DNA from: Nemertoderma westbladi | Taxonomy: Eukaryota; Animalia; Xenacoelomorpha | DNA: 51,476 nt | Direction of reading: 5' to 3' | NCBI GenBank assembly: GCA_032718475.1 | Contig: JAUCBJ010002447.1 | Span: 1 to 51,476 of the forward strand | Shown: piece after piece, positions 10,395 to 51,307 of the stretch | How the letters are laid out: each line of letters starts with the position of its first letter | How positions within the stretch are numbered: position 1 is the first letter of the stretch | Position numbers and translations under genes: made by a program | Notes under the pieces: model-generated | What the model saw: the letters and a program-made list of their open reading frames with translations, nothing else | Told to the model about the DNA's origin: nothing | The model's database searches: none

Positions 10395-13311
10395 ATGGGT
10401 TGGTGTAGGATGGAGTCCTCCAGGACGACAGTACTGGCTCTAAGCATTGGTGCAACACCATTTTTTTTATAATTTTCAGGGCTCCCCGACGACTATGCCA
10501 TCTTGGCTTCTGGAGAGAACGGCTGAAGGGTTTGGGCTGAAATTTGGCATGGAGGGTCCATAGGCATTTATAATAGCCAGGAGTTTTTTTGGGCGCGAAC
10601 CGTACATGAGATCTTGGAAAAGTGCTATTTTATGTACTACATTTTGTAAATATTCATCACAATTTGTCAATATTCATCCGCGGGATCATTCTACATAGTG
10701 TGTTTTTTAACAGTATCTATGACGACATCTAAAACAATGGCCAATCTGCATACAGTATAGAATTGGAAGCTAAATCGCACTACCACTGTTCCAGTTGTTG
10801 TATTCCCTTGGAAACTGTACGAATTATGAATAGCTGGCTTTATGTTTATTATGTGTAGGCATTACTGCATTAATTAATAAATATACTGTAGTTACGGTGT
10901 TACGTAATCAGTATGTGTAGGCTGTATGCATAGAATTTAATTTACTACCACATAGCTATAGGCTGTCAGCATTGCCTGAATTACTGCATGCACAGATTTA
11001 TTTAATAGCTATAATAAATTATTGCCACTGAAACTGTCAGATGGTGTTGCAAGTGCCTACCACGGTAAATCAGATACGGTAATACTGCAGTGTATTTATT
11101 TGTAGTAGGCCTTTTAGAATAACTTGAAATAATATATAAACGGCCTCTCAGGCAATGCCAGTCAGTCAGTCAGGTCAGCAGGTAGCTAGCTATATTTAAA
11201 TAATAATTCATAATTATTGTACATACCGCATGTCTGCCAGTAGGCCTAAAGCTCTGTTATGGGAATTATTATTGTTATTATGTCGCTGTACAGGCTGTTT
11301 AGAATTAGTGCATTTGCTTACAATGCCGGCAGTTCTGCATTTGACCCCATTTCGTTAATATTGTAGTGTAGGCCTACCAGATCAAGTGGCATGGGATCGT
11401 GGTTATTTAGCTAGTACAGACTGACAGAGCACAGATATTAATTTATTAGTTAAAATTAATTATGTTGAAGGATTCTGCACTTTGTATAAATAGTTATATG
11501 TCATAAGCATGTGAGGGGGTGGGGGGTTTACCCCCCCCCCCCCCCCTAACTTTTTGCAGCCTTCTATAAAAAAAAGAACTAACGGTACTGTTTTTTCTGT
11601 GTTCAGTTCACTACCGCAATGCATTTTGACCCGGTTCTACAATAATTACACATTATTGGTGCGATTTAATATCGACTCAAACCATCCACAGAATACGGCG
11701 CGGTTCACCAACTCGGATCCACCAAACAACAACACGGTTTAGACGCGGATGGATCAATAAAATCGGCGCGGTTTCAACCGCAATTAAAACCAACCAGATG
11801 CGATCCAACCAAACATTGTAGCGGTTCGCACAGACTCGGTTACAGTCTTACAGTGGACACAAACGCGGTTTAGTTCCGGATCAATAAAAAACGGCGCGGT
11901 TTCAACCGCAATTAAAACCAACCAGATGCGATCCAACCAAACATTGTAGCGGTTCGCACAGACTCGGTTACAGTGGACACAAACGCGGTTTAGTTCCGGA
12001 TCAATAAAAAACGGCGCGGTTCCATCCGCAATAAAACCAACCTGATGCGATCCAACCAAACATTGTTGCGGTTCGCACAGACTCGGTTACAGTGGACGCC
12101 AACGCGGTTTAGTTTCGGATCAATAAAAAACGGCGCGGTTCCATCCGCAATAAAACCAACCTGATGCGATCCAACCAAACATTGTTGCGGTTCGCACAGA
12201 CTCGGTTACTGTGGACGCCAACGCGGTTTAGTTTCGGATCAATAAAAAACGGCGCGGTTCCATCCGCAATAAAACCAACCTGATGCGATCCAACCAAACA
12301 TTGTTGCGGTTCGCACAGACTCGGTTACAGTGGACGCCAACGCGGTTTAGTTTCGGATCAATAAAAACGGCGCGGTTCCATCCGCAATAAAACCAACCTG
12401 ATGCGATCCAACCAAACATTGTTGCGGTTCGCACAGACTCGGTTACAGTGGACGCCAACGCGGTTTAGTTTCGGATCAATAAAAAACGGCGCTTTTCCAT
12501 CCGCAATAAAACCAACCTGATGCGATCCAACCAAACATTGTTGCGGTTCGCACAGACTCGGTTACAGTGGACGCCAACGCGGTTTAGTTTCGGATCAATA
12601 AAAAACGGCGCGGTTCCATCCGCAATAAAACCAACCTGATGCGATCCAACCAAACATTGTTGCGGTTCGCACAGACTCGGTTACAGTGGACGCCAACGCG
12701 GTTTAGTTTCGGATCAATAAAAAACGGCGCGGTTCCATCCGCAATAAAACCAACCTGATGCGATCCAACCAAACATTGTTGCGGTTCGCACAGACTCGGT
12801 TACAGAGGACACCAACGCGGTTTAGTTCTGCATCAATAAAAAATGGAACGGTTTCAACCGCAATAAAAGCAACCATAATGGATCATCCCAACTCCCCACC
12901 CCCCCCCCCCCCCCCCCCCCAACGTAGTGGATGCAGCCCCGCCACCCCCCCCCCCCCCAGCCATGCTACCATTTCTAATCCATAATTATGGGGGGGGGGC
13001 CTTGCGCCTGTGTCAGCAGGACACAGGCGCAGTTATTGGATATGTCCGATTATACAATTACGCAAGTAAGTTATATAGACTAACCCATGTATCTTAAAAA
13101 TGAAATTTTTTAGAAATTAATTATTATAAAGTTATTTTTCTTATTGTATATATCAATTTATTATTATTTTCTCATGATTTGGATATTTTTTTCTTAAATA
13201 ATAATGAAATATTTAATAGATTTAATAATTTCTAAAAGTAATTTGTAATCTTCATGATTAAGTAAGTAATTCTTGCAACAGTGGAGTATGCGTATACTCC
13301 ACCATCTCTGG
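10395..13311 (+). mobile_element. Module 7: diverged 2.9-kb member of the array family, carrying a 119-bp satellite (putative non-autonomous rolling-circle element)
   Basis: Starts ATGGG...GATGGA-GTCCT-CC-AGGAC-GACAG. Ends with a 12-bp-stem hairpin (13003-13031), a 9-bp hairpin GTGGAGTAT/ATACTCCAC (13281-13302) and CTGG|ATGG. Confidence 0.55.
11751..12872. repeat. Tandem repeat, ~119-bp monomer, about 9.3 copies
   Basis: GGATCAATAA recurs at 11751, 11878, 11998, 12117, 12236, 12355, 12473, 12592 and 12711, with a degenerate copy at 12830. Flanked by G/C homopolymer tracts. Confidence 0.97.
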
Positions 13312-16057: not shown

Positions 16058-18899
16058 TCTGTAGGCCTACTAATGTACATGCGCAAGTAATATAAATTGG
16101 GGGGGTCTATGCGCCTGTCGATTCATACGAATCGACAGGCGCAACAAAAGTATTTGGAATATTATGCCCATGTATACTTATATATGTAAGCCTTCAAGTA
16201 TAAACAAAACTGACCTTAACAAAATCAAGGTAGGCATTTGTTATTTTCCATCAGCAATATGGGCTTTAACTTTTAACTTTACATGTGATTAATAATACTG
16301 TAATATTCTAGAACAATACCACATGGCCAACGCCGTCGGCCATGCGCTCGCACGGCGCAAATGCTCCATTTGCGCTCTCCACCTGGATATTCCCGTAAGG
16401 AGTCGCCTTTGCCTAACACCCTCAGATGAAATTACACTGGTGGAAGCTACTGTAGCTATCTGATTGGCGATGCCTATATGGATAATTCAATTTAATAGGC
16501 TTGACAGTAATTGGCTTATACTAAGGCAGTCAGAGGAGATAACAAATGGCCCTCCTTGTTCGCTCAGTTACCTACAATAATTATCAAGGCAGTATGGGCT
16601 GATGTTAAAGCTTTCTGTTACAAGCTATTGTATTGTACTCTCTTGGCAATGTTCCAATATAGACTAACAGTAACTGGGTCGACTGCAGGGAAGTTAATTC
16701 GATATATTGGCAGTTCCGAGTAACTTGTATGCCTGTAATGAATGATATAGACAAGTTATATTGATGCCGTATGTCTATGAAAAAAATGTGACCAAATTGC
16801 TTTGGTATATAGATTATTCTTATATTCCTGCAATATAAATTAATCTACTACAGAATGATAATGCAATAGAACGTACCTAATGATAATGCGTACTTAATAT
16901 ACAAAGAAAATTATTACAAATCAAAATATTACAAATCAATGGATAGGACAATTTAACGGGTTAGATTTATCAGGGGAGTAAATTTATGTTTATAGCTGGA
17001 ATTTAATTCCAACTATTTTGGGACTTCGGATTTTGCTTTCAACAATATTTATCATCTGTAGCACACAATTCCACTGTCAGGTTACGAACACACATAGACT
17101 TATGGTACGCCGAGACCTGCATAGATTTACAACGTCGAGTCTGACACGTGGAAGTTTCCCCAGCCTCCGAAACCGAACAGCGTCAAGGGAGAAACTCTTT
17201 AATTGCATACAATTTTCAAGCAAACACTGCTGTCAACAGGAATAAATTTTGCTTAGCCTTACCCGCTGGTAAGCAAAATTTAATAACTTGATATCAGGAA
17301 CTCGTGCTTACAATAAGAAATACGTCTGCTCAGTTACCCAACGATCATCGATACCCTATTCGCACGTAGCTAGGAATCTTACTGTCGATCTGCCGCTGAA
17401 CGCAATACAACTGAGCGTTCAAATCCCTTACCGTACTCACTATACCGAACACCAACAGGATTGATATGGGACCAATTAATCCAGTTTTCATGCAGTCAAG
17501 ACGGGAACAGCACAAACACATTCAGTCACCTGAAATCACACTCACAAATAAGCAATTCACAATCGAAACACAAACAACACAGTACAGAAAAATTTCTTCA
17601 AATACCTCTCCCAGAATATTTAGATAGATACTCGATTTACTATTAAGACGAGATTGACACCAAGCGAGATATAATTACGCAAGGGACGTCCGGGACGTCC
17701 TATCAAAAAGGTGGGGGACACGCAGTTCGTTAGCCGCTTGAAATATTTGAGTGCAGAATCTACACTGAACTATTAAATGCTACAACAATAAATGTACATA
17801 CTGTAAATGTAAACATTCAGGTAAATAAATTTTTACAACTCCTATTCTATACACAGTAAATCTATTTATAACACCGACAGTTGGAAACCTAAAATATTCT
17901 ATTCAGGGTGCGCAGTCCTAAATAGCCTACTCTAGAATTACAGATAAGGACAATGCAACAATAAATGCGAGGAGAAAAATTCACCAGGTGGATAATATTC
18001 GCTGGCGAAATCTTCACTGAGTTAAATATTCACTGTTAGCGCTACAATTCAATTTTGCAAATAATGAACCTAAACTTACGACCAGCTGTATATACAAGAA
18101 ACGGGCGCTAGTAACCGTTACTTGTACTCGTAGAATAATTTATTGTTGCATATAAAACTGGCGTTACTATAAACAGATTTGAAACCCCGTATAAATAGTT
18201 CCTTTAAGTTGTGTGTCTGGACTGCTTACGTCTTTATGTCTAACTGAAAACTGTATTCATTCGAGACTTATGGAAGTCGGATTTATGAAACTGACAATCC
18301 GAGATACCGATGTCACAGGAATTAATTTTGTGCACGTATTAAAATATGTTAGTTTGCTATTAATATTAGGCGTCATATGACAATACTGTAACACACACCC
18401 CAATGCGATGAGTTGCAATACCGTACAGTCTATAGACCACCAACCTCAATGTTATTGTGCTACCAACGTTAATCAACAACGGAATGACTTGAATCCATTC
18501 TCTTTATCTTTATCGATAACATAATAATAACATAAATCGCAATAATTCAACTGATATAACAAATTAATTAATAGACAAACAATAAATCGACATAATACGA
18601 ATCAATATCACAAATTGACATCGGCAATATCACGAATTGACGTGAATATTCCGACCCACAAATCTACTAACAGCTAGTGAGTTGTTAACTAATAAATCTT
18701 CAATAGTTAGGCTGACCAACTGATATAATGCTATACTATATATAGGCTGGGGCTGGTAAGCTGAATGCAAATGGGTATTAGCCAATCAGAGCTATTCTGC
18801 ATGGCCCTTGCCGTATAACATAATAATTCTCTGGCAGAAGTAAATTAACAATATGGGGCGAGCCTGCGAGGTAAATGCCATTCACTAGTGGCATTAACA

Positions 18900-19710
18900 C
18901 ATACACAATGCTGCACAATACTGCACACTAATCTGCCAATCTTCACTGATTTTAGTCACATATAAAAGGAACACAGACTGACTCGTGTAGGGTCTATCAA
19001 ATAACATTAGATTCACTTCAAACCACTTTAACATAAGTCACAATCGTTATTGGTAACCTTTCTCTCTTACCTTCGGTATATCAAGAATATTGGGTTTCGG
19101 GGTTATTTATCGTTATTCCAAATATAATAATTCATCAACCATATTATGAAGAACTGACAGTAAATAGCAGTATAAAACAACAATGAAAACACTGATTGTT
19201 ATGAGTTTGCAATGTTTCAGCAGTCAGTATGTATGATCAGTTAGCAGAGTCAGGTAGTTAAAGGATATATGTCCTTATAATTAAACCTACTAGTGTAAGA
19301 CTAAAAACTGAAACACGGAGGTGCCAAAAGCCGGTTCTTAGGCTCTGGGCAAAAACATAACACTGAACTACTGAGTTTCTGTATATACCTCCAACACAGA
19401 GACAACAAACGCTCTGATTGGTCCACCTGAACAACGAGAGAACAAAGAAACAAAGAAACGTCGACGTGGCAATATCAGCTGCTAGCCGTCGTCATGGTAG
19501 CGACACTGTTTTCAAGAGTATCGAGCTTTTACGTCACGGAATTACGGATTATGTCCTCTAAAGTACAAATACAGAAGAAATAGCTTTTATGTCCGCTAAA
19601 ACACCAGTACAGCAAGGACACGGCCTTTTTATGCCTGGTAAACCAACTACAGAGTATTTTACGGGAAAAATAAGGAAAAATAACCGGACAATTCAGCAAA
19701 AGCTTTTACA
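18900..19710 (-). mobile_element. Diverged partial LTR of the BEL family (5' ~810 bp), inverted orientation
   Basis: The reverse complement starts TGTAAAAGCTTTTGC at 19710 and aligns with 24029-~24881. Clear similarity stops near 18900. Confidence 0.88.
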
Positions 19711-19972
19711 AAGTAAACACAAGAGTCTTACACCCCTTAAACTACAAAAAAATAAATAGAATCAGGACATTAAGCCCAAAATACTTCTCAGCCCCTAGGG
19801 CCATCAAAGGACACAATCAAAACAAACAAAAAAAACAAACAAAAATAACATAATAGCTCTACATACAGTTATGTATCGCAACCCTAACCCTAAAACCTAA
19901 CCACCATACACTAAATGATACCGGTAATAAACTGCACGAAAGCTAAGCCTATATTCTATAAGAAAATATATG
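19711..19972 (+). repeat. Left arm of a ~260-bp inverted repeat (right arm 23033-23300)
   Basis: Reverse complement of 23033-23298 with few differences; contains a CCCTAA-like tract near 19881-19902. Confidence 0.92.
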
Positions 19973-20125
19973 AGAATTTTGTCGCCGTGAAAGGGGTAGG
20001 ACTAAGGAAAAAATAATTAATTTGTGAAAAATATGGTTGCGTTTCGGTGTCTTGGACCAGTACACGCTAATCCTCGACACCATCGTCAGCTGGACAGTGA
20101 ATTAGCCAAGCCTAACTATATTGCA

Positions 20126-21150
20126 GCAATCAGATCAGTATACGATGGTTCGACAACATTTGTGTCTACTGTTGATGGTGACACAGAACCATTTGAAGTG
20201 TTATGGGGCGTCCTCCAGGGAGATACACTTGCACCATTCTTGTTCATAATTGTGGTTGACTATGTTCTACGCATGTCCTTAGATCATCATAATGATGATG
20301 GGGTGATGATAACTCACCTACTGGCTCCAGAAGTCGAGGAAATCCTGCCAAGTACCTAACTGATATAGACTTTGCTGATGACTTAGGAGTACTCTCAGAA
20401 TCACTAGAGGGAGCCCAACGGCTCCTCAGCTCATTAGAACATGCTGCTTCTAGTGTTGGTCTTTTTATTAACTCCAAAAAGACCAAAATTTTGACAGTTA
20501 ACTTTGAAAGTTCTCAGCAAGTCTCTGATCGGATGAGGATAAGCTCAAAGGATGGTATGCTTGAGCATGTGGACGACTTCTGTTACCTGGGATCATGGAT
20601 CCGAAAGTCAGGTGAGGACCTTCGAATACGTAAGGGAAAGGCATGGGCAGCCTTGAATAGGCTTTCTAGGATTTGGAAGTCACCGAGAATTAATCGGAAA
20701 CTTAAGGTCCGATTATTTAGAGCAGCAGTAGTTCCAGTACTCCTCTATGGGAGTCCATGCTGGGCTCTAACTGCTGAGGACACCAAATCTCTGGATGGCA
20801 CATTCACAAGAATGCTACGCCGGGTTCATTGTGTCAAGTACAATGCACACATCTCCAACCAGACACTATATAACATTGGAGGTGTCTCATTGGTTCCCCC
20901 AAACTTGACACTAGAACAAAATCGCCTCCGCTTTGCAGGACATTGCTTTCGCCGTGAGGACCAGCCAGTGCATAATCTTGTAGTTTGGCAGCCTCATGGA
21001 GTGAATAAGCATGGTGGACAGCCCATGACTTTCTTGAAACGCATCTTAAAGGACACCGGCCTTGAAGATGCGGATGATCTAGCAAATGTCATGGGTGATA
21101 GGGAGTTGTGGCGGCGCAATTTTGTCGACAAGCCGGCACAGCATTCTTAA
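20126..21150 (+). pseudogene. C-terminal part of an RTE reverse transcriptase, frameshifted near 20320
   Basis: ORFs 20024-20359 and 20491-21150 are in different frames; the FADD motif lies in the second frame upstream of its listed start. Confidence 0.85.
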
Positions 21151-21196
21151 AAATGCAGCTGCAATGCAGCATGCCGATATTAGTAGTAGTAGTAGT
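20126..21196 (+). mobile_element. 5'-truncated RTE-clade non-LTR retrotransposon with (TAG)n tail and 44-bp TSD
   Basis: RT motifs GVLQGDTLAPFLF, DFADD, GLFINSKKTK, FCYLGS, RLRFAGH. Tail at 21181-21196. Direct repeats 20082-20125 and 21197-21240 (2 mismatches). Confidence 0.88.
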
Positions 21197-21533
21197 ATCG
21201 TCAGCAGGACAGTGAATTAACCAAGCCTAACTATATTGCACCAATGACCTATATTAATCGCACCATCAACTCAGTTGCCACCTAGCCTAAGCAGACGTCA
21301 GACCTCAGAACATTGGAATCCTATAGGCCTATGGTAAGTAAACATGTTACCGATGGAAAACTGCTAGATTGCTAAGGCAAACACACAGTACAAAAATTAT
21401 ATAAGATTTGACAATATGCAGTGATGTCGGAATTCTGCTATTTACTTCATATATATGTGATAATTGAATGTACCGACTTACTGACTGACTGGGGGTTGTT
21501 ATGTATATATTAACTTAAATGCAAGAAAATAAG

Positions 21534-22686
21534 TTTTTTTTATTTATGACAATACATACAATGCTAGTATTAGGTGAATTTATTACGTAATGGTTGTATT
21601 TATTCGAGTAAGTCAAAAAGCCCGTCAGAGTTACTACTGTAGAGTCCACCGTTCCCAGGATAGATGCGGCGTTACCCATTAAAAAAAAAAGCAAATTGCT
21701 ATTAACAGCCTCTGCAACAGGAATCGATGGGATCGTGGCTCCATGGTAGCGTTGTAGAGTCGTCTTCCTACGTCTTTCAGGAAGGTTGCAGTGGCTGGTC
21801 CGGGTCGGCCAAAGGTCTCAAAGGCAACAGGAGTAAATTGATAACCGCGGTCTATAAGATCCTGGTACTTTCGTGTTTTTATTTTCTCCTGTTCCTTGGC
21901 AACGCGTCCTCCCATCGAGGGGGTCCACCACAGAGGCGTCCCAGGTCAAGGTCTTTCCGCTCTCCCAAGACACTAGAGTCATCCCATCTACCCGTTTACC
22001 ATCTGTTCTAGAGAGGCTGGGTGGTTCTAGAATAGAGGGGATATTACAGCTGGCCAACCCACCATGCTTCACGATCTCATTCCACATTGAATGGCGGGTG
22101 AATCGGCCAGCACTCTTCTGGCAATAAAGGCCGTGTAGTTCATCCGCATGGACTGAGCTTCCACACCTGGTGCAGGAGTGGGGCTCGGTTAATTTGCAGC
22201 CGAGGCGGGTAGCGATTGATACGCGGAGCTGAGAGTTAGGTAGGGAACTGCAGGGAATCTCGTCTAGCCAACATCCCGCTGTGCGATCTTCTATTGAGTT
22301 AAGCGCCGGGCAATGTCAAGACGAGTGGACGTGGCGCGAAGGGTGGCCAGATTATTTTGGTAGACTGGGCCAGACCAATCAATCTGCTTGGAAGAGTTCA
22401 GTGCTTCGAGCACGGGTAACACTTGTAATTTCCATAACTCAAGGGCGTGGGCACGAGCTGGATCCAGAGCAGGTGAAACCATGGAAGTAAAAAGATGGCT
22501 CGAAGAGTGTGTGGCAGGCAGCCGCTGAAGCCAGGAGGGGGCAAGCTGAACTGCCGAACTTAAATAGAGACCACCAAGTCGCGCTGGTAAACAAGCCTGG
22601 ATCCAAGTGGGGTCAGGGATGGAAACATTCGCGACCTGCTCGAGTGTGGATCTGAGAGATTGATCATACTTCTCTAGGAGGTCAGG
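21534..22686 (-). pseudogene. Decayed 3' fragment of a CRE-like non-LTR retrotransposon (zinc finger plus restriction-like endonuclease)
   Basis: Minus-strand peptides CTRC...HGLYC, EPPSLSRTDGKRVDGMTLVSWESGKTLTWD, KYQDL..YQFTPVAFETFG and GNAASILGT, with several frameshifts. AATAAA plus an A-run near 21534-21545. Confidence 0.78.
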
Positions 22687-22729
22687 TTTTATTTATTGCC
22701 TGAAGATAACTTTTAGTTTGAAATGCATT

Positions 22730-22925
22730 GCAATTTTAACAAAATATTTTAATTAATAATAATAATAATATTTTTAACATTGATTTTAGCAATTTTAACA
22801 TAATATTTTTAACATTGATTTTAGCAATTTTAACATAATATTTTAACATTGACTTTAGCCATTTTAACATAATATTTTAACATTGATTTTAGCAATTTTA
22901 ACATAATATTTTAATATTGATTTTA
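22730..22925. repeat. AT-rich minisatellite, ~33-34-bp unit
   Basis: ATTTTAACATTGATTTTAGCAATTTTAACATAAT repeated about 4-5 times. Confidence 0.9.
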
Positions 22926-22995
22926 TTTATATTAATTTTGAGAACATTATATATTGAATTAAAATTTTAACTGAATCTTAGAAACTTTTTATTTG

Positions 22996-23311
22996 TATTA
23001 ACTTAAAGGTCTTACACCCCTTAAACTACAAACATATATTTTCTTATAGAATATAGGCTTAGCTTTCGTGCAGTTTATTACCGGTATCATTTAGTGTATG
23101 GTGGTTAGGTTTTAGGGTTAGGGTTGCGATACATACCTGTATATAGAGCATGCTATTATGTTATTTTTGTTTGTTTTTTTTGTTTGTTTTGATTGTGTCC
23201 TTTGATGGCCCTAGGGGCTGAGAAGTATTTTGGGCTTAATGTCCTGATTCTATATATTTTTTTGTAGTTTAAGGGGTGTAAGACACTTGTGTTTTTACCT
23301 TTAAGTTAATA
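22996..23311. mobile_element. MITE-like element with short TIRs; includes the right arm of the ~260-bp inverted repeat
   Basis: TATTAACTTAAAGG-TCTTACACCCCTTAAACTACAAA on the left and TTTGTAGTTTAAGGGGTGTAAGA-(insert)-CCTTTAAGTTAATA on the right. TTAA|AGG...CCT|TTAA at 23003-23009 and 23298-23304. Confidence 0.55.
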
Positions 23312-23366: not shown

Positions 23367-23470
23367 GCATCCCCGAGGCTAGTCTCACCCGCTCTCTACC
23401 AGCATCCCCGAGGCTAGTCTCACCCACTCCCTAACAGCATCCCCGAGGCTAGTCTCACCCACTCCCTAAA
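23367..23470. repeat. 35-bp tandem repeat, 3 copies
   Basis: GCATCCCCGAGGCTAGTCTCACCC at 23367, 23402 and 23437. Confidence 0.95.
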
Positions 23471-24028
23471 CACGCCAGTCTGTTTATTGGCCTGGTTACA
23501 CATCGGACATTGTCAATACTGTTGAGTCTTGTATGGAATGCCAGCGACATCGACCATCGCTTCCAAACCAACCCATGATGCACCAAGAAATTCCTTCTCG
23601 TTGTTTTCAAGCTATTGATTTCTTCGCACATGGTGGTTCCCATTATCTTATTTACGTAGACCGTTATTCTGGATACCCTATTGTCGAATACTTTCGAAAT
23701 GTACCAACAGCATCGGAAACAATTTCGGTTTTCCGCAGATATATTTCTATGACAGGGATTCCCAATATACTCACTTCTGATAACGGTCCACAATTCATGG
23801 CAGAAGAGACCCAAAAATTTATTTCCGAATGGGGTGTAAAATTCTATTACGGACGTTCGGCGATAGCATTGAAGTCAATAAAATCAGGAACTACTGTCCT
23901 TGTTCAAGACACAATTTCGAAAAAGTGGGACAAACTCGCAACAGTTGTAGGAACAGCTGATCGTCGCCGATATAGACTTCAGTCACATAAACCGCAGTCA
24001 CATTCGTCCAATTCAACCTGAACTACTG
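23471..24028 (+). pseudogene. Internally deleted Ty3/Gypsy integrase remnant, target of the first BEL insertion
   Basis: CMEC, AIDFF, VDRYSGYP, SDNGPQF, WGV; the segment carrying the catalytic E is missing. A probable tail (..RYGR..) resumes after 35910. Confidence 0.82.
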
Positions 24029-25274
24029 TGTAAAAGCTTTTGCGTAATTAGCCGGTTATTTTCCCTTAAAGTACTCTGTAGTTGGTTTGCCAGGCATAAA
24101 AAGGCCGTGTCCTTGCTGTACTGGTGTTTTAGAGGACATAAAAGTCATTTCTTATGTATTTTTACTGTATTTGTACTTTAGAGGACATAATCCACAATCT
24201 CGTGACGCAATAGCTGGATACTTTGAAAACAGTGTCGCTACCATGACGACGGCTAGCAGCTGATATTGCCACGTCGACGTTTCTTTGTTTCTTTGTTCTC
24301 TCGTTGTTCAGTTCAGTTCGTTCGTTGACCAATCAGAGCGTTTGTTGTCTCTGTGTTGGAGGTATATACAGAAACTCAGTAGTTCAGTGTTATGTTTTTG
24401 CCCAGAGCCTAAGAACCGGCTTTTGGCACCTCCGTGTTTTCAGTTTTTAGTCTTACACTAGTAGGTTTAATTATAAGGGCATATATCCTTTAACTGACAT
24501 ACCGATCAAACTCATGGAATCACTGATCTGGGAATACACTGACTGCTGACACACGGCTTTTAATAACTGCTGAAACTGCTAAAATTACCTGCTCAATCGA
24601 TACTGTGTACTGCTATTTGTTGTCGGTTATTCATTATATTGGTTGATGAATTATTATATTGGAATAACGAGAAATAACCCCGAAAACCCAATATTCTTGA
24701 TATACCGAAGGTAAGAGAGAAAGGTTACCAATAACGATTGTGACTTATGTTAAAGTGGTTTGAAGTGAATCTAATGTTATTTGATAGACCCTACATGAGT
24801 CAGTCTGTGTTCCTTTTATATGTGACTAAAATCAGTGAAGATTGGCAGATTAGTGTGCAGTATTGTGCAGCATTGTGTATGAGTGAGTCTGTTAAAGAAG
24901 CAATTCCTAAAGAATGCGCCATATATGTGAATTATAATTAAGCCATATCGTTGTGAGTAGTTTAAGTCATAACTCTGTTTATATAGATAAAGCGCCACGT
25001 CCTAAAGGAACTGTTAATATTCCCCGAAGGTGAATAATATTGTCAGAGATTATATAATACTGTCAGTCGAATAATACATTAGGCTTACATAGCAATAAAA
25101 TTAAACCGTCGAACCCAATCTCCCGGGAATATCCAGCGGGTGAATGATCGCGCACAGATTGGTTTCGACTAGTGTAGTGAATCAAATACTTGTCATAGAC
25201 TAAAAACCGATTTAATATCTAGAAGACATCTTAATTTGGTGGGTTAAACTGCCAAAGGTCTGAAAGCGCGAACA
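24029..25274 (+). repeat. 5' LTR of BEL copy 1 (1246 bp)
   Basis: TGTAAAAGCT...GCGCGAACA. Appears identical to the 3' LTR apart from a 12-bp indel near 24311-24323. Confidence 0.96.
24329..24388 (+). promoter_or_regulatory. Candidate LTR core promoter (CCAAT, TATA-like, TCAGT initiator-like)
   Basis: CCAAT at 24329, TATATA at 24363, TCAGT at 24376 and 24384. Largely conserved across the LTR copies, but the TATA-Inr spacing is shorter than canonical. Confidence 0.35.
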
Positions 25275-25286
25275 TTAAAGGATATA
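25275..25286 (+). promoter_or_regulatory. Non-tRNA primer-binding-site position, complementary to LTR 24482-24493
   Basis: TTAAAGGATATA directly follows the LTR-terminal CA. Its exact reverse complement TATATCCTTTAA is at 24482-24493 and 35113-35124. No TGG start. Confidence 0.75.
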
Positions 25287-25555
25287 GCTTCTGTATTGCA
25301 GTAGGCAATAAAGCTGAAGTACCGGCAACCGGTACCCAGTAGGCCTGACTACCTAACCACCCGGACCGGTACCTACAGCAGTACAGGTACAGCAGTATTA
25401 TTCGATTTTGATAATTATATACCGGTAGGCCTTAATAATTAATCAGGGAGGGCCCGCCCTGGTTTTTTATTGAGATTTTTACTTATTTCTGTCAAGTTTT
25501 ATTTGTTTGTAGGCCAGTATTGAACAGAAGGCGTGTAAGCCTGATCAGATTGTAC

Positions 25556-26120
25556 AGACAATTTGTAGGCTGAGCTGTTGTCTGATTGCTGTTAAGTCTG
25601 AACGGATTGCAGTGTGTGTAGATCACCTGTCCGATTAAGTACGGTTAGGAAGTAGGGGCAGCGAACGCTGTAAGGTAAACCCCCAACTAAAGAATAAGTC
25701 GCACTACTGGGTTAGAGCCTAATTATTTCGGAGTCTGCATGTCCTGTAGTTTATTTAGGCTTGAGAGTAGTCTGCCATCGTTTAGTCTGTACTTTGTTTG
25801 TGTAAGTCTGTACGGGTAGCGTATAATTTTATTTAGATAATTTGTAGGCTGGATAGTTGTCCGGCTGTTGTTAGGTCTGAACGGATTGCAGTGTGTGTAG
25901 ATCATTTGTCTGATTAAGTACGGTTAGGAAGTAGGGGCAGCGAACGCTGTAAGGTAAACCCCCAACTAAAGAATAAGTCGCACTACTGGGTTAGAGCGCA
26001 TACTCCCTAATCATTTCGGAGTCTGCATATACCGTAGTTTGTTTAGGCTTGATAGTAGTCTGTCAGTGTTCGGTCTGCATTTTGTTTGAGTAGTTTGTAC
26101 GCGTAGCGTAATATTTATTA
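25556..26120 (+). repeat. ~280-bp tandem duplication in the BEL 5' leader (also in copy 2, ~38700-39270)
   Basis: TAAGTACGGTTAGGAAGTAGGGGCAGCGAACGCTGTAAGGTAAACCCCCAACTAAAG occurs twice, ~279 bp apart. Confidence 0.9.
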
Positions 26121-27448
26121 TTCAGAGTTTATGCGATTATCCGCAACATTCATTCCCCAAGTTTGTTCCTACAGTAATTGTGTTTGTTATACATACCGCT
26201 ATAGTTAAATTAACCTCGGTACTACACGGGCTGCTTGGCGTAGGTAAAGACTGGTGATTTTGTGCATCGGTCACTCCAGCAGATGCCGTGGTTCTTTTAG
26301 CTGTTCAAGTATATTTAACTACTGATTATCTGTTATACAAGTACTCGTACCTAATTTAGGGTTTAGTGTACAGTGCTTTCCGAAAGTAATTAGTGTAGGC
26401 ATTACATTTGTGGTGTAAAGTGGTTAATAGGCACGTTCGATTAGCTCTATTAACTTCTAGGTAGGAACACTCCGTGATACATAACGTAGTACCTATAGCG
26501 ATACGGCTATAGGTCGTCAGGCGGTGGTATTTTCCTATCTGGACAACGCAGTGTATTTACTACTACGTATTATTTTCAAATACCGCAGTACCCTGTCCGT
26601 TGTAATAACCAGATTCTAACCCTTTGTTAGGCTGGTTAGTAGACTTCTTATAAAATTACCCTAAAAATTCGTATTTTGTGTTTTTGTAAATTTTTGTGTT
26701 TATTTAGAGATTGTAATCTCAACCCGAATCGTACGTAATTTGTAGTATTAAGTAACTTAGGTAAATTAGAATCATTTGTTTTAGTGTCCTGTACGTAACA
26801 CTTCACTAAAAGCGCACCGCTTTGTGTAGTGATTACTCCCCAGAAATAATAACATTTATTTCAAATACTGACAAAACCCATTAAAACGGGTATATATATA
26901 TTATAAATCAAATCTAACGATTTATAAATAGTAGGCCTACCATATAACAATTAGGTCTCAATATCAGTTGGACTACTGCTCAAATAACGGTAATAAAGTA
27001 AGTAAAGTAACCAAGTAACCCTAAAATTCAGAAATTCAATTATTTAAAATAATTGGTATACCGGTATTTACGATAGGCCTATTATCTTTATTTCTATAAA
27101 TTTTAGGTTGAAATCATACCGGTACTCTGTAATTAATTCTAGTCTGTAATTATACTTATATATATACCCTATAAGTGTAAACTGCATACCGGTATTCCGA
27201 TAAGCCTATTATATATTTATATATATTTGTGCTAAAATTATACCGGTATTCTGTGATAAACCTAGTCTGTAATAATACTTATATAGTTATATATACTATA
27301 AGCATACCGGTATTCTAATATATTATATATATCACGCTACACTGAGTAGCAGTACCGGTAATTAATTACTAGGCTAGCAGTTAATACTGAGTTACTAGAC
27401 TTGCTCAGACTGTAATACAGCAGTAGACATTCAACTGTACACATAAGC

Positions 27449-30400
27449 ATGTCTGACGCAAAGCAGAACCTGTCAGACAGTCTACTAGATACAACTGAGA
27501 GCGAAGTGACAGCAGAGAAACCGCATAAGAGGGATGCCATTGACATCTATCTGTCAGACTATCAACGTTTTTTAGGTGATGACGAGTTGAGGAGAAGGTT
27601 AGAGGGACTTAGCCCTAATAGTGAAGGAACCAAGCTTGTGTTGGATGCCATCGATGTGGAAATGAGGGCTGCGAACCAGGCTAAATTTGATGAACAACTC
27701 CGCATCACCAGAGTCCAAGAAGAACAAGTAAAGAAAAAACGTATAGAAGACAGAAAGGCAGCGGCAGTAGCAGCAGCAGTGGCAGCTGCAGAAGCAGAAA
27801 GAAAAGCGGCAGCGGCAGAGGCAGCGGCAGAGGCAAAAGCGGCAGCGGCAGAGGCAGCGGCAGAGGCAAAAGCGGCAGCGGCAGAGGCAGCGGCAGAGGC
27901 AAAAATGGCAGCGGCAGAGACAAAGGCAGCAGCCGAAGCGGAAAGAAAAGTGGCGGAGGCAGTGGTAGAAGCAGAACGGAGAGCGGCTGAAGAAACCACC
28001 CAATTAGAATTGGAAAACATTCAGGAGAATCAAGACTGCATAAATAAACAGTTAACAGCTAGTAATATGCAGATGATGAATCGATCTACTCCCAAAAGAC
28101 AGGGATATACATCATCTGAGGAAGGCGATACCACCGATACTGAAGGCAAGGGAAATAGATCTCGTCTAAGTAGACGTAAAAGAACATTCCACCGTCAGAA
28201 ATTGCCTGATTTGCCTCCAGCTGTTAGAAGGCAACTAAATAACACCAACTTAGGTAGTACAGAGCCCACAGACCAAATAATTAAAATAGAAAGACTCCCT
28301 ACTATAGTAGATGAGCCTGAAATAATTAGGCCTGTTCTTGAAATCACCCCTTCGGTGATAGACACACATGTGCTCCCTGAAACTACCTCTAAATTCCCTC
28401 TGCATAGCACTAAGCTACCTGTGCCCCGCAGAACTGCCCAAGAGACAGTTCAGGTCCTGGACCCCGAGCGAAATATTCACAATTTGTCGCCCGTTGTCCC
28501 TCGTCCGCCCGCTACAACGTTGGCGACTCCCGCTTCGGCGGTCGAATGGGTGGACGAGAGACGGCGGGGGATGGATATCCTGCTCGGGCAGATGCAGGAG
28601 ACTGTCCAGCAATTCAAGGGCACAGTAAGGGAAAGTAGGCTAGAGTTGCAAGAAGTGCAGCAAAGTATCGCGCTTGAACGCGATAAATTAGTAAATACCC
28701 AAAAGGGTATACCACCACCCTCTGTAACAATGTGTCAACCTGTTAGGTCTGAAGTATTGCATGCGCAAGGTGTGGAGCCTACACGCATATATACTGCTAG
28801 CGAAGTAGAAACTCCTATAGTGAACCCTATTAAGGGTAATTATAGACCTGTTGATAATGACATTCCCTATAGACCTGATCATAATCCGAGAAATTTATAT
28901 ACCGATAACTCGATATTAAATAACACGATGGCCCAAGAAAGTTTTACGCGTCAAATGGCTAGAACCGAAGCCCGGCAAGCGGTAAAGGTGGGAGAGATCG
29001 TCAAGTTCAATGGAGATGAGATGAAATGGTTACATTTTTTAATGAATATTATAAAGATAACATACAGAACTCTGTACTATCTAACGGAGAGAAACTTAGA
29101 TTCCTCATCGAATGTTTGGAAGGACCTCCCAAGTCAATGGCGTTAAAATTTATTGGACATCCAGATGGATTAAGACAAGTTTGGGATACACTAAACATCA
29201 GGTATGGTAATAGGACTAACATAGCTAGGTATTTATATACGAAATTAATGGCGCCCCGAAAGTTTCTTAGCAGCGGGATTATAGAGTTTTCCGATGAGAT
29301 TCAGGAGATCTGTAGACAACTAGATTGGTTAGGTAAGTCTCATGAATACCAGAATTCTATGGTTGTAGGAGCCTTAGCATCTACTTTGCCCAAGGGTGGA
29401 GTAGGTACACGCTGGGACAAGAAGGTGTTATATATGATGGAACAACAACAACGAGACCCTACCATGGCTGATCTCATGTCATTCTTAGATGGAGAAGTGA
29501 AATTACAGCTCCTAAGACAGTCCAGAGAGAAGACACTGGAAGACAAGGTAAGTGAGAAACCCGTTTCTAGGAGAAGGGTAACACCAGTATGTTATACCGA
29601 CGACGGTGAAAGCCAAACTTCTCAAGGAGAGGACAGCGGGAAAGACACTGACAGATCTTATTATGTCAATAAATTGCCTAAAGATCAGGTAAGTAAATCC
29701 GAGTCTCGACCCAATGACAGAAGGGAACCGGTACAAAAAACCCTTCCTACGTCTCCTAAAAGAATTCAGGTGAGAAAGCCCGAGGAAAGAACAAGTGTGC
29801 ACCACATAGCACAGGTTAAAGTAAGTAACATCAAGCCGAAATGTGTGCTGTGCGACGGGCCCCACCGTTTAAATGCGTGTGATAAATTCCTGAGGAAATC
29901 ACTAAAGGATAGACGTGAAGTCATATGGGATAAGCGGTTGTGTTATAATTGCCTCATACGAGGACACCAACGGCGAACCTGTAACTCCGACGCAAGGTGT
30001 GCAAAGTGCGGCGCAAAACATCATATCTTGTTGCACACGGAATTCGAACGAAACAGCCCGAGTCAGGTAAGTGAGTCCGAACTACATGTCCAATTCAGTG
30101 ATGTGAACGACACTGATCAATCTGAGATGGAAGGATTCTATACGGACGAGTTTTCCGACCAAAACGAATCCTGTTACCTAATAAACACCACCGCAGTGTA
30201 TCGAGCACTTGTGTATGAAAAAGACACAGACAGCGACCTCACCCTAACTACTTCAGATCAACAACCATCTTGGAAAGCGCCAACTTCCAATATAGGAATC
30301 CGAGAATTTCCTGTAGTCCAGTTACGGGTCCACGGACCTCAGAAGAGCTATATAGTGAACGCCCTCCTGGACTCCGGTAGCACAGGAACATTCATCGATA

Positions 30401-31581
30401 AAGAACTAGCCGAAGTCATCTTTGCTGGACAACCCAAGTTCCGAACCAAGCTAAACATGTCAGGGATCATGCAGGTTTGGAATTCTACTGTAGCTGCCGA
30501 CTATTATGTAGGCGTGTTGTCCACCCCCCAGGACGAACTAGGAGAACATAGCATAAGGTCAGTGAAAATGGTGGCTATAAAGAACTTCGCTACTACTCAA
30601 GCAGACCTTTATAATTGGGACGAGGATGAGAGCATCCAACATCTTAACATACCTCGATTCCAGACTGATTATCCTGGAGTGCAAATACTCATCGGCCAAA
30701 ACGCGCATGAGGCGCTGGAGACATTAGAGAAATGACCTGCTCAACCGCAGCCACTACAGACCTATGCGGTAAGAACTAGAGTAGGTTGGTACCTTACTGG
30801 ACCTTCCCGTAGAACGCTCAGGGAAAGACTGCTTCAAGATCGCGTCTGCCAGGTAAGTGAATGGGAAGATGATACTAGTGAGGGAGACGACCCAACTGAG
30901 GGAACACCACACTCCTCAGATAATGACAATCTTAGCTCCAATGTAGATCAATGGAGATATTGCCCCAAGAAGTTTAATCCAACGGACATCGCTTCCAGAG
31001 GAGCAACTCCTCAAGAACTGACAGATACTATAGACCGGTTAGGTGAACCCGACTTCCTGAGTAAGGAGAATGAATGGCCTCCCCATCTTACTCCGACTGA
31101 GATTAGACCAGCCAAGGGAGCGGAGAAAGTTAAACCTAAAACCCGGACGGGTGGAGCGGAGTTATTTGAACCCGGGATAGATCTGTCGGTATTGCATATT
31201 GCCAGGGACGACGCCATGGATCTAGACCTCCCCACCGCGAGTGGATCCTTCATGAAGATCAGAGAGAGCGATTGGAGCTCTGGAACATCAGACGTCTCGC
31301 AGGGACTCTCACCTCTCCTGCAGGGAGCGACGGACCACTATAGCTCCTGGAATCGGCTTTGTAAGGCCGTCGTGTACTTAGAGCGATGTTTCTATCGTCA
31401 CTATTCCAGGACGAAGAGGAAACCTGGAATTGTATTCGGGATGCAGCGACTCAATCACCCAGTCGGTCGTTTGTGTTTACCGGAAGGGAATGGAGGACTC
31501 TCCGGAAACTGTGGAAGGCAAGATTCTCATCCCACGACCACCTCCCTAATCCTTCAAACATCTAGGGACTCCATAACGTAA
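27449..31581 (+). pseudogene. gag-pro: BEL Gag-protease polyprotein with RT and most of RNase H deleted; frameshift near 29036, TGA at 30733
   Basis: FNGDEMKW..LSNGEKLRFL (BEL Gag); CVLC..H..C, CYNC..GH..C, CAKC..HH..LH; ALLDSGS, ILIG, TRVGWYLTGP; then directly QWRYCP..NPTDIASRG and YSSWNRL. Confidence 0.9.
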
Positions 31582-32129
31582 CAACATATGGAGTGGGTGT
31601 GTGACTCTATTATTTTATATTATTTTATTATTTTTATATTTCTGTATGTATTACTATGTAATTTTATTATAATCGTTTTCTTTAATTTTATTCAGTAGAA
31701 TGTTATTTTAGCGATTATTTAGTAGATTAGTGCAATATATATTCGCGTTTATTACTTAATTACGTATGTATTATATTTAGTGCGACGGCAAGGGATAATT
31801 CTTTTCTCTTTCCTTACTGTCCGTATCATATTATAAATACGTGACTACAGTAAGATGAAATGTCCGTACTTATTAAAGTACAATAAAGCCACTACTATAT
31901 TCAAGTATTATTGGTAGGCAGAGTATTAGGAATGCAAAGATCAGATCCTCGTGTCTCGGCTAAACCAAGCTCTGGGTAGACCTTGGAAACGACTTGCCTC
32001 TTCACACTGACATTGCTTTGTGCGATATTGCTCTCATACCGTATATTAAATAATACATATAGTAGCGTGATGTCCCTTTAACAGTAGCGTATAACGCAAA
32101 ATAAATCTGTTAAACCCTTTGACCATCTG

Positions 32130-32410
32130 CCATTCTAGTCGATTAAGATATCGTGGCACCCACCGATATACTTGAAAGACAAATTATAGAATCAGTGGTT
32201 AACGTCCCCAGACAAGTTCTGGAATAAATCGGTGCCCATCTCAAATATTAATTAGTTAATATTTACAAATCAAATAAGTCAAAATCTGTAAAATTCAGAT
32301 CCTTCAACAATTCTAGTCAATTAAGATATCGTAGCATTTACCGATATTCTTAAAAAGACAATTGTCATAGAATTAAGGATCTTGTGTCCCCAGACATGTT
32401 CTGGAATCCA
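32130..32410 (+). repeat. Degenerate ~180-bp duplication in the BEL 3' non-coding region
   Basis: ATTCTAGTC.ATTAAGATATCGT.GCA...GTCCCCAGACA.GTTCTGGAAT twice. Also at ~46096-46333 in copy 2, where the Gypsy element inserted. Confidence 0.75.
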
Positions 32411-33251
32411 AATATGTCCATTTAGTTGTCAAATAATAAAATTTCAGGGAATAAATTTAAATTCATGCCTTTTAATGAATTTAATAAATTGCCATTTTTA
32501 CGCAGTTTATAAAGTTCCCAAAATTCCATTAATTAATAGATCAAGGGAGCGGAGATTTATCTTATCATGCGTATGAGTGTGTGAAAGTCTCCCAAACATA
32601 GTCAATAGCCGATAAAATTCATAAAGTCATGTATAAAACAGAACATTGACTATTAAAGAATACTATTAAATAACATCCCAGATCTGTATGCATTGTAATT
32701 ACTCTAATTCTACCGCTAGCTTTGCATAATGTCACCATAGCAACAACCACGCTAGAATTATAATTGAGTTAAAAGAACAATAGAAAGCTTGTCCCATTGA
32801 ATAGCATAGGGAATAAATAGCGCACTACTAGTATCCAAGGATACATCCAGAATACAGTGACATTCTGGAAGGCATTGACTAACGGACAAATGGCCCGAAT
32901 GTGCGTAGTTGTGACCAGTTGTGTGGTATTTGTGAATTTATAGGTGAATGTTACTGCTAAAGTGTGTTTACAGTAGCTAGTCGCAATCGTAAAGTAACCT
33001 AACTCTCCAAGGAATACCTGAAGTACATCTAAGCCTTTGGGACGGACAGTCGAGTGACTTGTGCCGGTTGTCGTTGTCGTTGTGCGGCTACGTCGTTGGC
33101 GAAAGTACAGCGGCGACGACACATCGGCGCTGAGGATCTCGTACTGTCCGGGGGTTGATTGGGGTAGGCAGCGACGCCCGCTCGCCTAAATATAAACTCA
33201 TTATAATATGGATGAACTCATATATAGCAGATATGACGGAGTTGATAGAAG

Positions 33252-34593
33252 ATGGTCTTGGTATCGGGGAACGATATATTCTACTTTCAAACGTTTGTTG
33301 ATAGCTTGATACGCGGTGATACTAGTCCAACTACTACGAAGGATGATGGTCGTTATATCGAACCGCCAATGTCCCAAGAGCAGCTTACGCGTGAGTTGGA
33401 CTATAAGAAATTCACTGCTCGATATACGCAGCGTAATGGTACGTATATGGGCTTCTTAACTACTGGTCATTCTATCAATTTACACAATACGGACTATGTC
33501 GACTATATATCCTGCCCAGCGGAGTCGGAACCATAAACTGAAATTCGAATGCGAAAATTCTATTCGAAATCGGCTTGAAAGAAAAGACATTAAAGAAACA
33601 AATAAACGCGGTAACTCCAACATATATTTGGAATTCTTGATAGAAGCATTGTAACAACAAATAAATATCATCCGCGTTTCCACTACCAGACGTGCGTCTT
33701 TGGTATTATTACGGTAAATGCCCTAGACCCAGCCAATAAACGGAAAGACATAAACATCCACGGAAACGTCGTGTTAAACACAGTTGTGTTCGTTATATTT
33801 ACTGGAGTTTCGAGCGAAACTTGTTTGACGTATCACCTATGCTCACTCGGCTCTAACGATCCTAGAGTAAACCTACGATCAGAGTCCCGGAATACTCGGT
33901 CAAACCTCCTCATTCCTTAGTTGGACCTCAGACCTGCGATCCTGGTGGTGTCGCGGATCCTCGCGGACGGTATTCACTGTTCAAGATCTATTGCTACCCT
34001 AACAATTAATCGGTAACACTCCGACAGTGATTTCTAGCTAGCCGCCCATCTTACCTAGCCGGATTATGACGCAGACACCTAATATCATGATCCAACCGTA
34101 TGGTCGTCCCGTTTAACGCGATACAACCCTTCATCAAGGTGAAGGAGAGCGTTGTACGAAACGAGTTAAACGCTATTCTATAAAGATCAAAAAAGAAACC
34201 TGCGTTTGTTCAGATAAACGTAAGTTATAACAGTAAGTCCAATCGATAAACGAATTGGCCTTATCTCAGTTCGATTGGGAAACCTCGAATCTCAAAGAAG
34301 ATATCAAGCTTAGAATTATATTAGCCCTATTCTCGCCCTATTATTATAGCCCTATTCTCTGCGAGAGTTTTGGACGAACGTATCCCATGACAAGCGGAGG
34401 AAAATCAGCTCGAGGAGAAGCATATCGAAATGGACGAGACACCGACCGTAAACCCAAACCTTTTAATGCAATCATATTGCACCCTTCACCCAGGAGTTAT
34501 GGCCCTCCTAGTAAAGTGGCTCCCCCCAAAGAGAAAAGGACTCTTGCTAGCCTCAAAAAACTGCGTAAACGCCGTCTGCGTAAGAAAGGCTAA
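33252..34593 (+). pseudogene. Possible highly decayed BEL integrase remnant
   Basis: Weak motifs in the expected order (SLIR, MGFL, TDYVDY, NIYLEF, TTRR, HPG/YG..KV, KKL) just upstream of the PPT; multiple stops and frameshifts. Confidence 0.3.
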
Positions 34594-34663
34594 CTGTTTA
34601 GAGTATCTTTATATTTTAGAAACTGTGATTTGTTATATTTTATAGACTTAAATCCCATTTTCT

Positions 34664-34671
34664 GGGAGCGG
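34664..34671 (+). other. Short polypurine-tract-like sequence of BEL copy 1
   Basis: GGGAGCGG immediately precedes the TGT of the 3' LTR. Confidence 0.6.
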
Positions 34672-35905
34672 TGTAAAAGCTTTTGCGTAATTAGCCGGTT
34701 ATTTTCCCTTAAAGTACTCTGTAGTTGGTTTGCCAGGCATAAAAAGGCCGTGTCCTTGCTGTACTGGTGTTTTAGAGGACATAAAAGTCATTTCTTATGT
34801 ATTTTTACTGTATTTGTACTTTAGAGGACATAATCCACAATCTCGTGACGCAATAGCTGGATACTTTGAAAACAGTGTCGCTACCATGACGACGGCTAGC
34901 AGCTGATATTGCCACGTCGACGTTTCTTTGTTTCTTTGTTCTCTCGTTGTTCAGGTTGACCAATCAGAGCGTTTGTTGTCTCTGTGTTGGAGGTATATAC
35001 AGAAACTCAGTAGTTCAGTGTTATGTTTTTGCCCAGAGCCTAAGAACCGGCTTTTGGCACCTCCGTGTTTTCAGTTTTTAGTCTTACACTAGTAGGTTTA
35101 ATTATAAGGGCATATATCCTTTAACTGACATACCGATCAAACTCATGGAATCACTGATCTGGGAATACACTGACTGCTGACACACGGCTTTTAATAACTG
35201 CTGAAACTGCTAAAATTACCTGCTCAATCGATACTGTGTACTGCTATTTGTTGTCGGTTATTCATTATATTGGTTGATGAATTATTATATTGGAATAACG
35301 AGAAATAACCCCGAAAACCCAATATTCTTGATATACCGAAGGTAAGAGAGAAAGGTTACCAATAACGATTGTGACTTATGTTAAAGTGGTTTGAAGTGAA
35401 TCTAATGTTATTTGATAGACCCTACATGAGTCAGTCTGTGTTCCTTTTATATGTGACTAAAATCAGTGAAGATTGGCAGATTAGTGTGCAGTATTGTGCA
35501 GCATTGTGTATGAGTGAGTCTGTTAAAGAAGCAATTCCTAAAGAATGCGCCATATATGTGAATTATAATTAAGCCATATCGTTGTGAGTAGTTTAAGTCA
35601 TAACTCTGTTTATATAGATAAAGCGCCACGTCCTAAAGGAACTGTTAATATTCCCCGAAGGTGAATAATATTGTCAGAGATTATATAATACTGTCAGTCG
35701 AATAATACATTAGGCTTACATAGCAATAAAATTAAACCGTCGAACCCAATCTCCCGGGAATATCCAGCGGGTGAATGATCGCGCACAGATTGGTTTCGAC
35801 TAGTGTAGTGAATCAAATACTTGTCATAGACTAAAAACCGATTTAATATCTAGAAGACATCTTAATTTGGTGGGTTAAACTGCCAAAGGTCTGAAAGCGC
35901 GAACA
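34672..35905 (+). repeat. 3' LTR of BEL copy 1 (1234 bp)
   Basis: Direct repeat of 24029-25274, followed by the TSD TACTG. Confidence 0.96.
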
Positions 35906-36456
35906 TACTGCCTCCAAACGATTACATCAAATACCAAAATATCGATACTCGAAAAACCGATATGGGCGCAGATATACTGTTCCCAAGTGAACAAACTTAT
36001 AACATTCATGGTGGCGGTGAAGAAAGAGACTATTAAACAACATGTTTGAAACTGAAACTTTAACATATATTCATGGCTATATATATACGTTTAATAGAGA
36101 GAAAAAAAAAAAAAACTTGGTATAACCTAATTAGGATACATTAGAAAGGTTGATAATTGAAGGTCAGGCTTAAGCCCTGGAAGCCTACCTCCCTGGATAT
36201 TTTAGTAGAACTGTGCTGTACTATGTACATTGGTTGTGCACCGGTAGGTACCTGGGTGGTATTTATTCATATATTGTAATAACAATTGTTTATTATTGAT
36301 TTGAGATATTATAATGCCATATGTTCATACTAGTTGTTGTTGTCTCATATGGGATCATTATAGAATGTACCTGAGGCTACTGAATTATGCATTAGTTATA
36401 TATATTAAATAAATATATTAAAAAAATATATATCGCCAATTTTTTGGGGAATCAAT

Positions 36457-38406: not shown

Positions 38407-38417
38407 ATAACAGATAT
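38407..38417 (+). promoter_or_regulatory. Non-tRNA PBS position of copy 2, complementary to LTR 37666-37676
   Basis: ATAACAGATAT is the exact reverse complement of ATATCTGTTAT at 37666-37676. Confidence 0.75.
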
Positions 38418-46514: not shown

Positions 46515-46524
46515 TCTCTCCCCT
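46515..46524 (-). other. Polypurine tract of the Gypsy element
   Basis: AGGGGAGAGA directly before the TGT of the 3' LTR on the minus strand. Confidence 0.88.
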
Positions 46525-51296: not shown

Positions 51297-51297
51297 T

Positions 51298-51306: not shown

Positions 51307-51307
51307 A

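Follow-up and report, generated by a model that had tools for sequence, protein, structure and literature searches.

A candidate self-derived primer in place of a tRNA primer binding site in a non-autonomous BEL/Pao retrotransposon family of Nemertoderma westbladi

Two copies of a BEL/Pao retrotransposon family in Nemertoderma westbladi carry, at the position of the primer binding site (PBS), the exact reverse complement of a short stretch of their own LTR. Both copies lie in the window, the whole stretch of 51,476 nt of contig JAUCBJ010002447.1 that was analysed here. We propose that minus-strand synthesis in this family is primed by the first ~13 nt of the element's own RNA, in the manner of Tf1, and not by a tRNA. 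We put the probability of this reading at about 0.6. That the primer is self-derived in one way or another is considered very likely.

On protein and LTR features only, the family is placed in BEL/Pao (Belpaoviridae), and on its gene content it is classed as a non-autonomous LTR retrotransposon of that group. The parts of the two copies, and of a partial third LTR, are as follows.

24024 to 24028, + strand: left copy of the 5-nt target site duplication, repeated at 35906-35910
24029 to 25274, + strand: 5' LTR of copy 1, 1246 nt, TG...CA
27416 to 31581, + strand: broken gag (DUF1759, zinc knuckles), protease and short pol-tail remnants of copy 1; RT, RNase H core and integrase absent
34664 to 34671, + strand: purine-rich tract preceding the 3' LTR of copy 1
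34672 to 35905, + strand: 3' LTR of copy 1, with the copy of the LTR site at 35113-35124
37219 to 38406, + strand: 5' LTR of copy 2
40581 to 45544, + strand: gag-protease region of copy 2, followed by the same shortened pol tail as in copy 1
18897 to 19710, - strand: partial third LTR, with the copy-1 site at 19258-19269 and differing sequence directly after it

Copy 1 spans 24029-35905. Its two LTRs are identical at 1234 of 1234 aligned bases and differ by one 12-nt indel, and the copy is therefore young. Copy 2 begins at 37219 and is broken at 46333 by a Gypsy insertion, with its 3' end beyond the window. The DUF1759 domain (PF03564) was detected in gag with E values of 1e-10 and 7e-11. Among the longer relatives found, PF03564 was present in 6 of 6 and PF05380 (Pao peptidase family) in 5 of 6. 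The coding region also contains zinc knuckles and an aspartic protease motif, the latter weak. Downstream of the protease, the frame skips to pol-tail remnants that correspond to residues 801-816, 1377-1426 and 1464-1498 and to the C-terminus of a full Pao-type protein. RT, RNase H and integrase are missing from both copies, a lack that the first-pass annotation did not mention, so a helper element is needed for priming and mobility. A close autonomous helper was not found, the best relatives being ~30% identical. Copy 1 has the LTR features of BEL/Pao, namely the TG...CA ends, a target duplication and a polypurine tract. As the first-pass annotation had reported, there is no TGG at the PBS position of either copy, and the 18-nt PBS that would match a tRNA-Arg or tRNA-Gly 3' end is therefore absent. 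The Ty3/gypsy RT, integrase and chromodomain features of the Tf1/sushi group were not found either; gag and the remnants are Pao-type. Searches with the exact LTR motif gave no matches in metagenome or viral contigs, and BEL/Pao protein queries gave none in viral contigs. Both copies have a tandem duplication of 280-290 nt in the 5' leader (25556-26126 and 38699-39278), and decayed extra frames lie ahead of the 3' LTR of copy 1 (32700-34600), one with a basic tail and none with a Pfam match.

Other repeats occupy much of the remaining sequence. The Ty3/gypsy element inside copy 2 (46334-51476, - strand) has LTR parts that are 100% identical over 169 nt and a pol frame of 1172 codons. It carries an ordinary TGG primer site, which argues that the elements of this host do not generally go without one. 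An integrase fragment (rve, H2C2) at 23470-24021 lies directly upstream of copy 1, so copy 1 seems to be nested in an older LTR element. The element at 19715-23294 has ~260-nt inverted ends, 97% alike, and an RT fragment with DUF6451 at 20299-21150. Six tandem units of ~1.73 kb, 96-100% alike, are found within 1-10650, and 8.6 units of 119 nt within 11848-12874. A search against Rfam gave no matches anywhere in the window.

The complementary sites of the two copies are listed below, together with a second stretch in copy 2.

24482 to 24493, + strand: candidate self-primer of copy 1, with a predicted RNA start near 24481
25275 to 25286, + strand: PBS position of copy 1, no TGG, pairing with 24482-24493
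37666 to 37676, + strand: candidate self-primer of copy 2
38407 to 38417, + strand: PBS position of copy 2, pairing with 37666-37676
37563 to 37575, + strand: second, wobble-rich stretch of copy 2 that can pair with its own PBS (13 bp, 3 G-U)

When the matches were recomputed, the exact complementarity noted earlier was confirmed over 12 nt in copy 1 and 11 nt in copy 2. Both PBS-position stretches open at the first base past the LTR-terminal CA, and the pairing is not continued into the CA, offsets of -1 to -3 yielding 5-6 nt only. The first-pass annotation was thus right that the pairing ends at the CA, but its view of this geometry as something a primer needs did not hold, since relatives leave a gap of 0-6 nt. 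The LTR sites of the two copies are homologous, with distances to the LTR start of 453 and 447 nt, and in copy 1 the primer is separated from the PBS by ~790 nt. We simulated first-order Markov LTRs (n=20,000 per copy), counting a match anywhere in the LTR. A match was held by 7 of 20,000 simulated LTRs for copy 1 and by 27 of 20,000 for copy 2. Among internal pseudo-PBS positions, an equal match length was reached by 1 of 9,346 in copy 1 and 2 of 7,873 in copy 2. Crossed pairs matched over only 5 nt (PBS of copy 1 with LTR of copy 2) or 6 nt (PBS of copy 2 with LTR of copy 1). The duplex energies were -16.4 and -13.8 kcal/mol for the copies' own pairs, compared to -7.1 and -6.6 kcal/mol for the crossed pairs.

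Three differences between the LTR sites of the two copies are mirrored in the PBS, as had been claimed. The PBS differs at a fourth place, position 12, with no matching change in the LTR site, so that copy 2 pairs over 11 nt. Two of the three mirrored changes are adjacent and the site borders an indel-rich region, and the changes need not be three independent events; the covariation comes from the two PBS-bearing copies that can be read in phase. An equal of the wobble-rich match of copy 2 was not found in copy 1. Conversely, copy 1 allows the pairing to be extended to 24365-24375, a possibility that was dropped because copy 2 does not keep it. A splice junction gave no better match in either window copy. 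Bases 38407-38411 of the copy 2 PBS are the first five given for Tf1 in the accessible part of PMC11042837, probably by chance.

In the mechanism that we propose, transcription would start at ~24481 in copy 1 and at 37664 in copy 2, and the 5' end of the RNA would fold back over ~790 nt onto the PBS. The RT-RNase H of the helper would then cut after 24493, as in Tf1, and the freed 3'-OH would be extended into U5. Finally, the primer would be copied into the plus-strand PBS, by which changes in the LTR site would be carried into the PBS.

The regions of the LTR that bear on the site and on the RNA start are the following.

24331 to 24368, + strand: CCAAT-like and TATATA boxes, candidate rival upstream promoter; TATATA is changed in copy 2
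24444 to 24496, + strand: conserved island that includes the site, a TATA-like box (24471-24478) and a predicted small hairpin, kept in contigs that differ upstream, downstream or both
24496 to 24610, + strand: hypervariable stretch directly 3' of the site, with 60% identity between copies 1 and 2
25235 to 25256, + strand: predicted U5 hairpin, 18 nt ahead of the PBS, with its copy 2 counterpart at 38364-38387

Public contigs from four runs (X1, X3, X4 and X5), which report the presence of variants and not their phase or the RNA ends, were aligned to the LTR. The summed contig depth over the LTR was very high, which suggests a large family and is not a copy number. Depth was high through the site; from 24487-91 to 24497-501 it dropped by a factor of more than ten in X1 and X3 and of about seven in X5. 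The site is retained across family contigs, whose sequences part ways 2-3 nt past it; some differ on both flanks and align only over ~24444-24496. Between copies 1 and 2, identity is 96% upstream of the site, falls to 60% right after it and is 83% further downstream. At the first PBS position (25275), the base of copy 2 accounted for 29% of depth in X1 and 37% in X3 and was absent from X4 and X5. A variant at 24466 appeared in one alignment of the contigs and was missed by another, whose lack of substitutions inside the site is therefore given no weight. The predicted pairing of the U5 hairpin survives three differences in copy 2, a comparison of two sequences only. The variant 25240 T>C, which made up 62-100% of contig depth in the four runs, would strengthen this hairpin by replacing a U-G pair with C-G. 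A U5 stem-loop adjoining the PBS is reportedly a requirement of Tf1-type self-priming. A variant at 25293, at ~58% of depth in X1 and X3, would break a hairpin predicted 3' of the PBS. Past the primer site, the LTR contains several splice-donor-like sites (24711, 25030 and 25140, within 24700-25145), and the highest contig depth was seen over a conserved block of ~40 nt (24991-25030) that is bounded by an AG and a donor-like site.

The PBS position was then compared among distant BEL/Pao relatives, for which 80 loci were retained from 473 BEL/Pao matches in metagenome contigs. These relatives share 21-28% identity with the window family in gag/protease and have no DNA match to it. The 3' end of the LTR was placed in 10 distinct families from the point at which two LTR copies diverge. 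In L054, L061 and L037 the end was shifted back by a few bases to the terminal motif; the LTR pair of L061 is only 70% alike, and the LTR of L049 is partial. Pairing was counted if it was Watson-Crick only, began 0-6 nt after the LTR end, and was contiguous or ran across a GTRAG...AG intron of 55-200 nt. By this rule, nine of the ten families self-pair over 10-15 nt. The pairing runs across a predicted LTR intron in seven (L003, L027, L028, L036, L037, L054 and L061) and is contiguous, as in the window copies, in two (L005 and L049). For each of the nine, 0 of 1000 pseudo-PBS controls reached the match, counts that are optimistic because the rule was widened after first looks, and the relatives are not independent of one another. 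In the tenth family, L063, no self-match was seen, and a TGG site follows a 5-nt spacer. The gap between the CA and the paired stretch is 0-4 nt, reaching 6 nt in a wider set, and the PBS letters of the nine self-pairing families are unrelated to those of the window copies.

Six further families (L009, L013, L014, L016, L048 and L057) show junction pairing of 10-14 nt, that of L048 being 10 nt, with LTR ends that were placed partly by the pairing itself. The remaining loci were duplicates of counted families or had no placeable LTR end, and matches at a CA not shown to be an LTR end (e.g. L017, L064, L065) were left uncounted. Across the 13 junction-pairing families, the predicted introns measure 74-163 nt and imply a first exon of ~5-11 nt. 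Between two related families, as seen at L048 (222-245 and 655-690) and L031/L054, one predicted first-exon base differs, and so does the PBS base paired with it. The self-pairing families are spread across a quick RT tree that is poorly resolved and from which the window element, having no RT, is absent.

The window family may represent an intron-less form of the arrangement that, in many relatives, seems to be assembled over a predicted LTR splice junction. Such an intron-less site could arise by reverse transcription of a spliced 3' repeat. Extended to the superfamily, this would mean that much of animal BEL/Pao is tRNA-independent, using as primer the capped first 12-16 nt of the RNA, mostly drawn from a spliced first exon of 5-11 nt, while the high-copy family of the window is intron-less and primed in trans by a helper. 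We offer this wider proposal tentatively and judge its chances to be somewhat short of even. If the primer is assembled by splicing of a first exon, host splicing would gate reverse transcription.

A start-like motif recurs in these relatives. The first A of a YACA motif lies 12-16 nt before the primer 3' end in six of nine families, and in 9 of 12 rows of the wider set (background 0.05). The motif holds this position whether or not it is paired, and the pairing ends within ~2 nt of it. We infer that YACA may mark the start of transcription in the relatives. YACA is missing from the window copies, where a pyrimidine-purine step is found 13 nt ahead of the primer end (24480/24481 and 37663/37664). 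In 5 of 13 relatives the paired stretch follows a GGA-pyrimidine motif (background 0.03), as it does in copy 2 and the partial LTR, and L061 and the partial third LTR have 11 upstream bases in common. The predicted probability of the site-PBS helix exceeded 0.8 only for RNA starts within 14 nt of the site in copy 1 or 6 nt in copy 2, and was 0.1 or less with starts at -18 or further upstream.

The element's own RNA might also supply the primer by a part other than its first bases, either as a 3' end formed in the 3' LTR at the site or close to it (35124) or as a longer 5' piece cut after 24493. The TATA-like box lies 10 nt upstream of the site and would direct a start near 24500, downstream of the site. 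This counts against a 5'-end primer, as the site would then fall in U3 and be present at the RNA 3' end only. In X1, X3 and X5, 10-49% of the contig depth carries an extra A that turns the box into TATAAA. With this extra A the box may be read as a poly(A)-signal variant ~16 nt before the end of the site, which would favour a 3'-end primer. The CCAAT and TATATA boxes at 24331-24368 would fit an upstream start, and the drop in LTR conservation directly after the site is also in line with a primer of this kind. However, once the RNA includes 18 nt or more ahead of the site, folding predicts that local hairpins lock it up, and from a start near 24390, as the CCAAT/TATATA pair would give, the fold is predicted not to form. 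A 3'-end primer is further disfavoured by the lack of a U- or GU-rich stretch after the site and by the poly(A) tail, which would block the 3' end. In the relatives, moreover, the paired stretch reaches at most ~2 nt past the start-like motif on its upstream side. We regard priming from these other parts of the RNA as unlikely. The folding predictions and the start-like motif of the relatives are indirect evidence that favours a 5'-end primer over a 3'-end primer.

Covariation demonstrates pairing and not priming, and the pairing could instead belong to a selected long-range RNA structure, acting as a packaging signal, dimerisation element or translation switch, in an element primed by something else. 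The accessible part of PMC6934838 describes fungal GalEa copia elements and bivalve TRIMs that have no PBS; the role of the other hairpins that they carry is unsettled. Such a structure would not account for the location of the paired stretch, which in all self-pairing families examined lies at the PBS position, 0-6 nt past the LTR end. The stretch is also of primer-like length, and no other primer site is visible; we therefore find a structural role without priming improbable. Priming of each subfamily by a host tRNA half or fragment, with the LTR match as a by-product, appears still less likely. The first 6-7 PBS bases could presumably pair with the anticodon loop of a Lys tRNA (copy 1) or an Asn tRNA (copy 2). 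Half-tRNA primers do exist in copia lineages, according to the accessible part of PMC6317226. But two different tRNAs would be needed, and neither the match of both PBS variants to the same LTR position over 11-12 nt nor the match of nine other families' unrelated PBS letters to their own LTRs would be explained. No tRNA genes were found in the window or in the 49 of 80 relative loci that were scanned. The site is AT-rich and the LTR long, and unanchored scans over all CA positions give wobble matches of 10-16 nt off the LTR ends, as a chance match would predict. The anchored match, on the other hand, was rare in the simulations, occurs at a homologous position with different letters in the two copies and recurs in relatives, and we give chance almost no credence. 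Collectively, these results support the claim of the first-pass annotation that priming is self-derived: the match is far beyond chance, it covaries, and the PBS position proved self-complementary in nine of the ten distant families with a placed LTR end.

BEL/Pao is one of the three LTR retrotransposon superfamilies in animals. If many of its lineages self-prime, self-priming would have arisen in, or been kept by, all three LTR superfamilies. Annotation tools that demand a tRNA PBS would under-call such elements, and host control via tRNA fragments would not reach them. Junction-built primers, as predicted in the relatives, would link the start of reverse transcription to splicing. What appears to be new here is the self-priming signature in BEL/Pao; the mechanism has already been described for fungal and plant elements.

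According to ICTV, BEL/Pao elements have an 18-nt PBS for tRNA-Arg or tRNA-Gly, and their replication is poorly understood and taken to be tRNA-primed (PMC8742986). We found no published case of self-priming in BEL/Pao, although subscription journals, Repbase Reports or supplements may hold one. In the accessible parts of the main texts, priming is not discussed in PMC3118150, PMC554778, PMC6238403 or PMC8556966 and receives a generic mention in PMC8220671. The accessible parts of PMC3601003, PMC6934838 and PMC3286476 likewise contain no BEL/Pao case. For Tf1, the parts of two reports available to us state that the first 11 nt of the RNA serve as primer, with RNase H cutting between bases 11 and 12 (PMC7175516), and that the end of the cDNA comes to include a copy of the primer, about half of the cDNA keeping the copied PBS (PMC11042837). 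For Tf2, a downstream start without the primer is described in the accessible part of PMC5341516, and self-priming is predicted for Tcn1 and for the copia TAR lineage in that of PMC6317226.

The window family resembles canonical Belpaoviridae (Semotivirus) in its DUF1759 gag, zinc knuckles, protease, Pao-type pol remnants, TG...CA LTRs, 5-nt duplication and purine tract, and differs from them in that it has no tRNA PBS and has lost RT, RNase H and integrase. With the TAR copia elements Houba and Osr1 it shares a self-priming prediction drawn from PBS-LTR complementarity alone (PMC6317226, as far as accessible); TAR elements, in contrast, are plant Ty1/copia and belong to another superfamily. 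The closest likeness in arrangement is to the chromoviruses Tf1/Tf2 of S. pombe, Tf1/sushi and Tcn1, which also have no tRNA PBS and carry an LTR stretch of ~11 nt complementary to the bases after the 5' LTR. Unlike Tf1, the window element is BEL/Pao and non-autonomous, has a 1.2-kb LTR and ~790 nt between primer and PBS, and has a start and cut site that are predicted from sequence. Many BEL/Pao relatives also appear to build the primer across an intron, for which no report was found for Tf1. Together, these comparisons indicate that the window element, as judged from its sequence, probably works like Tf1 in its self-priming, yet is not a member of Tf1/sushi.
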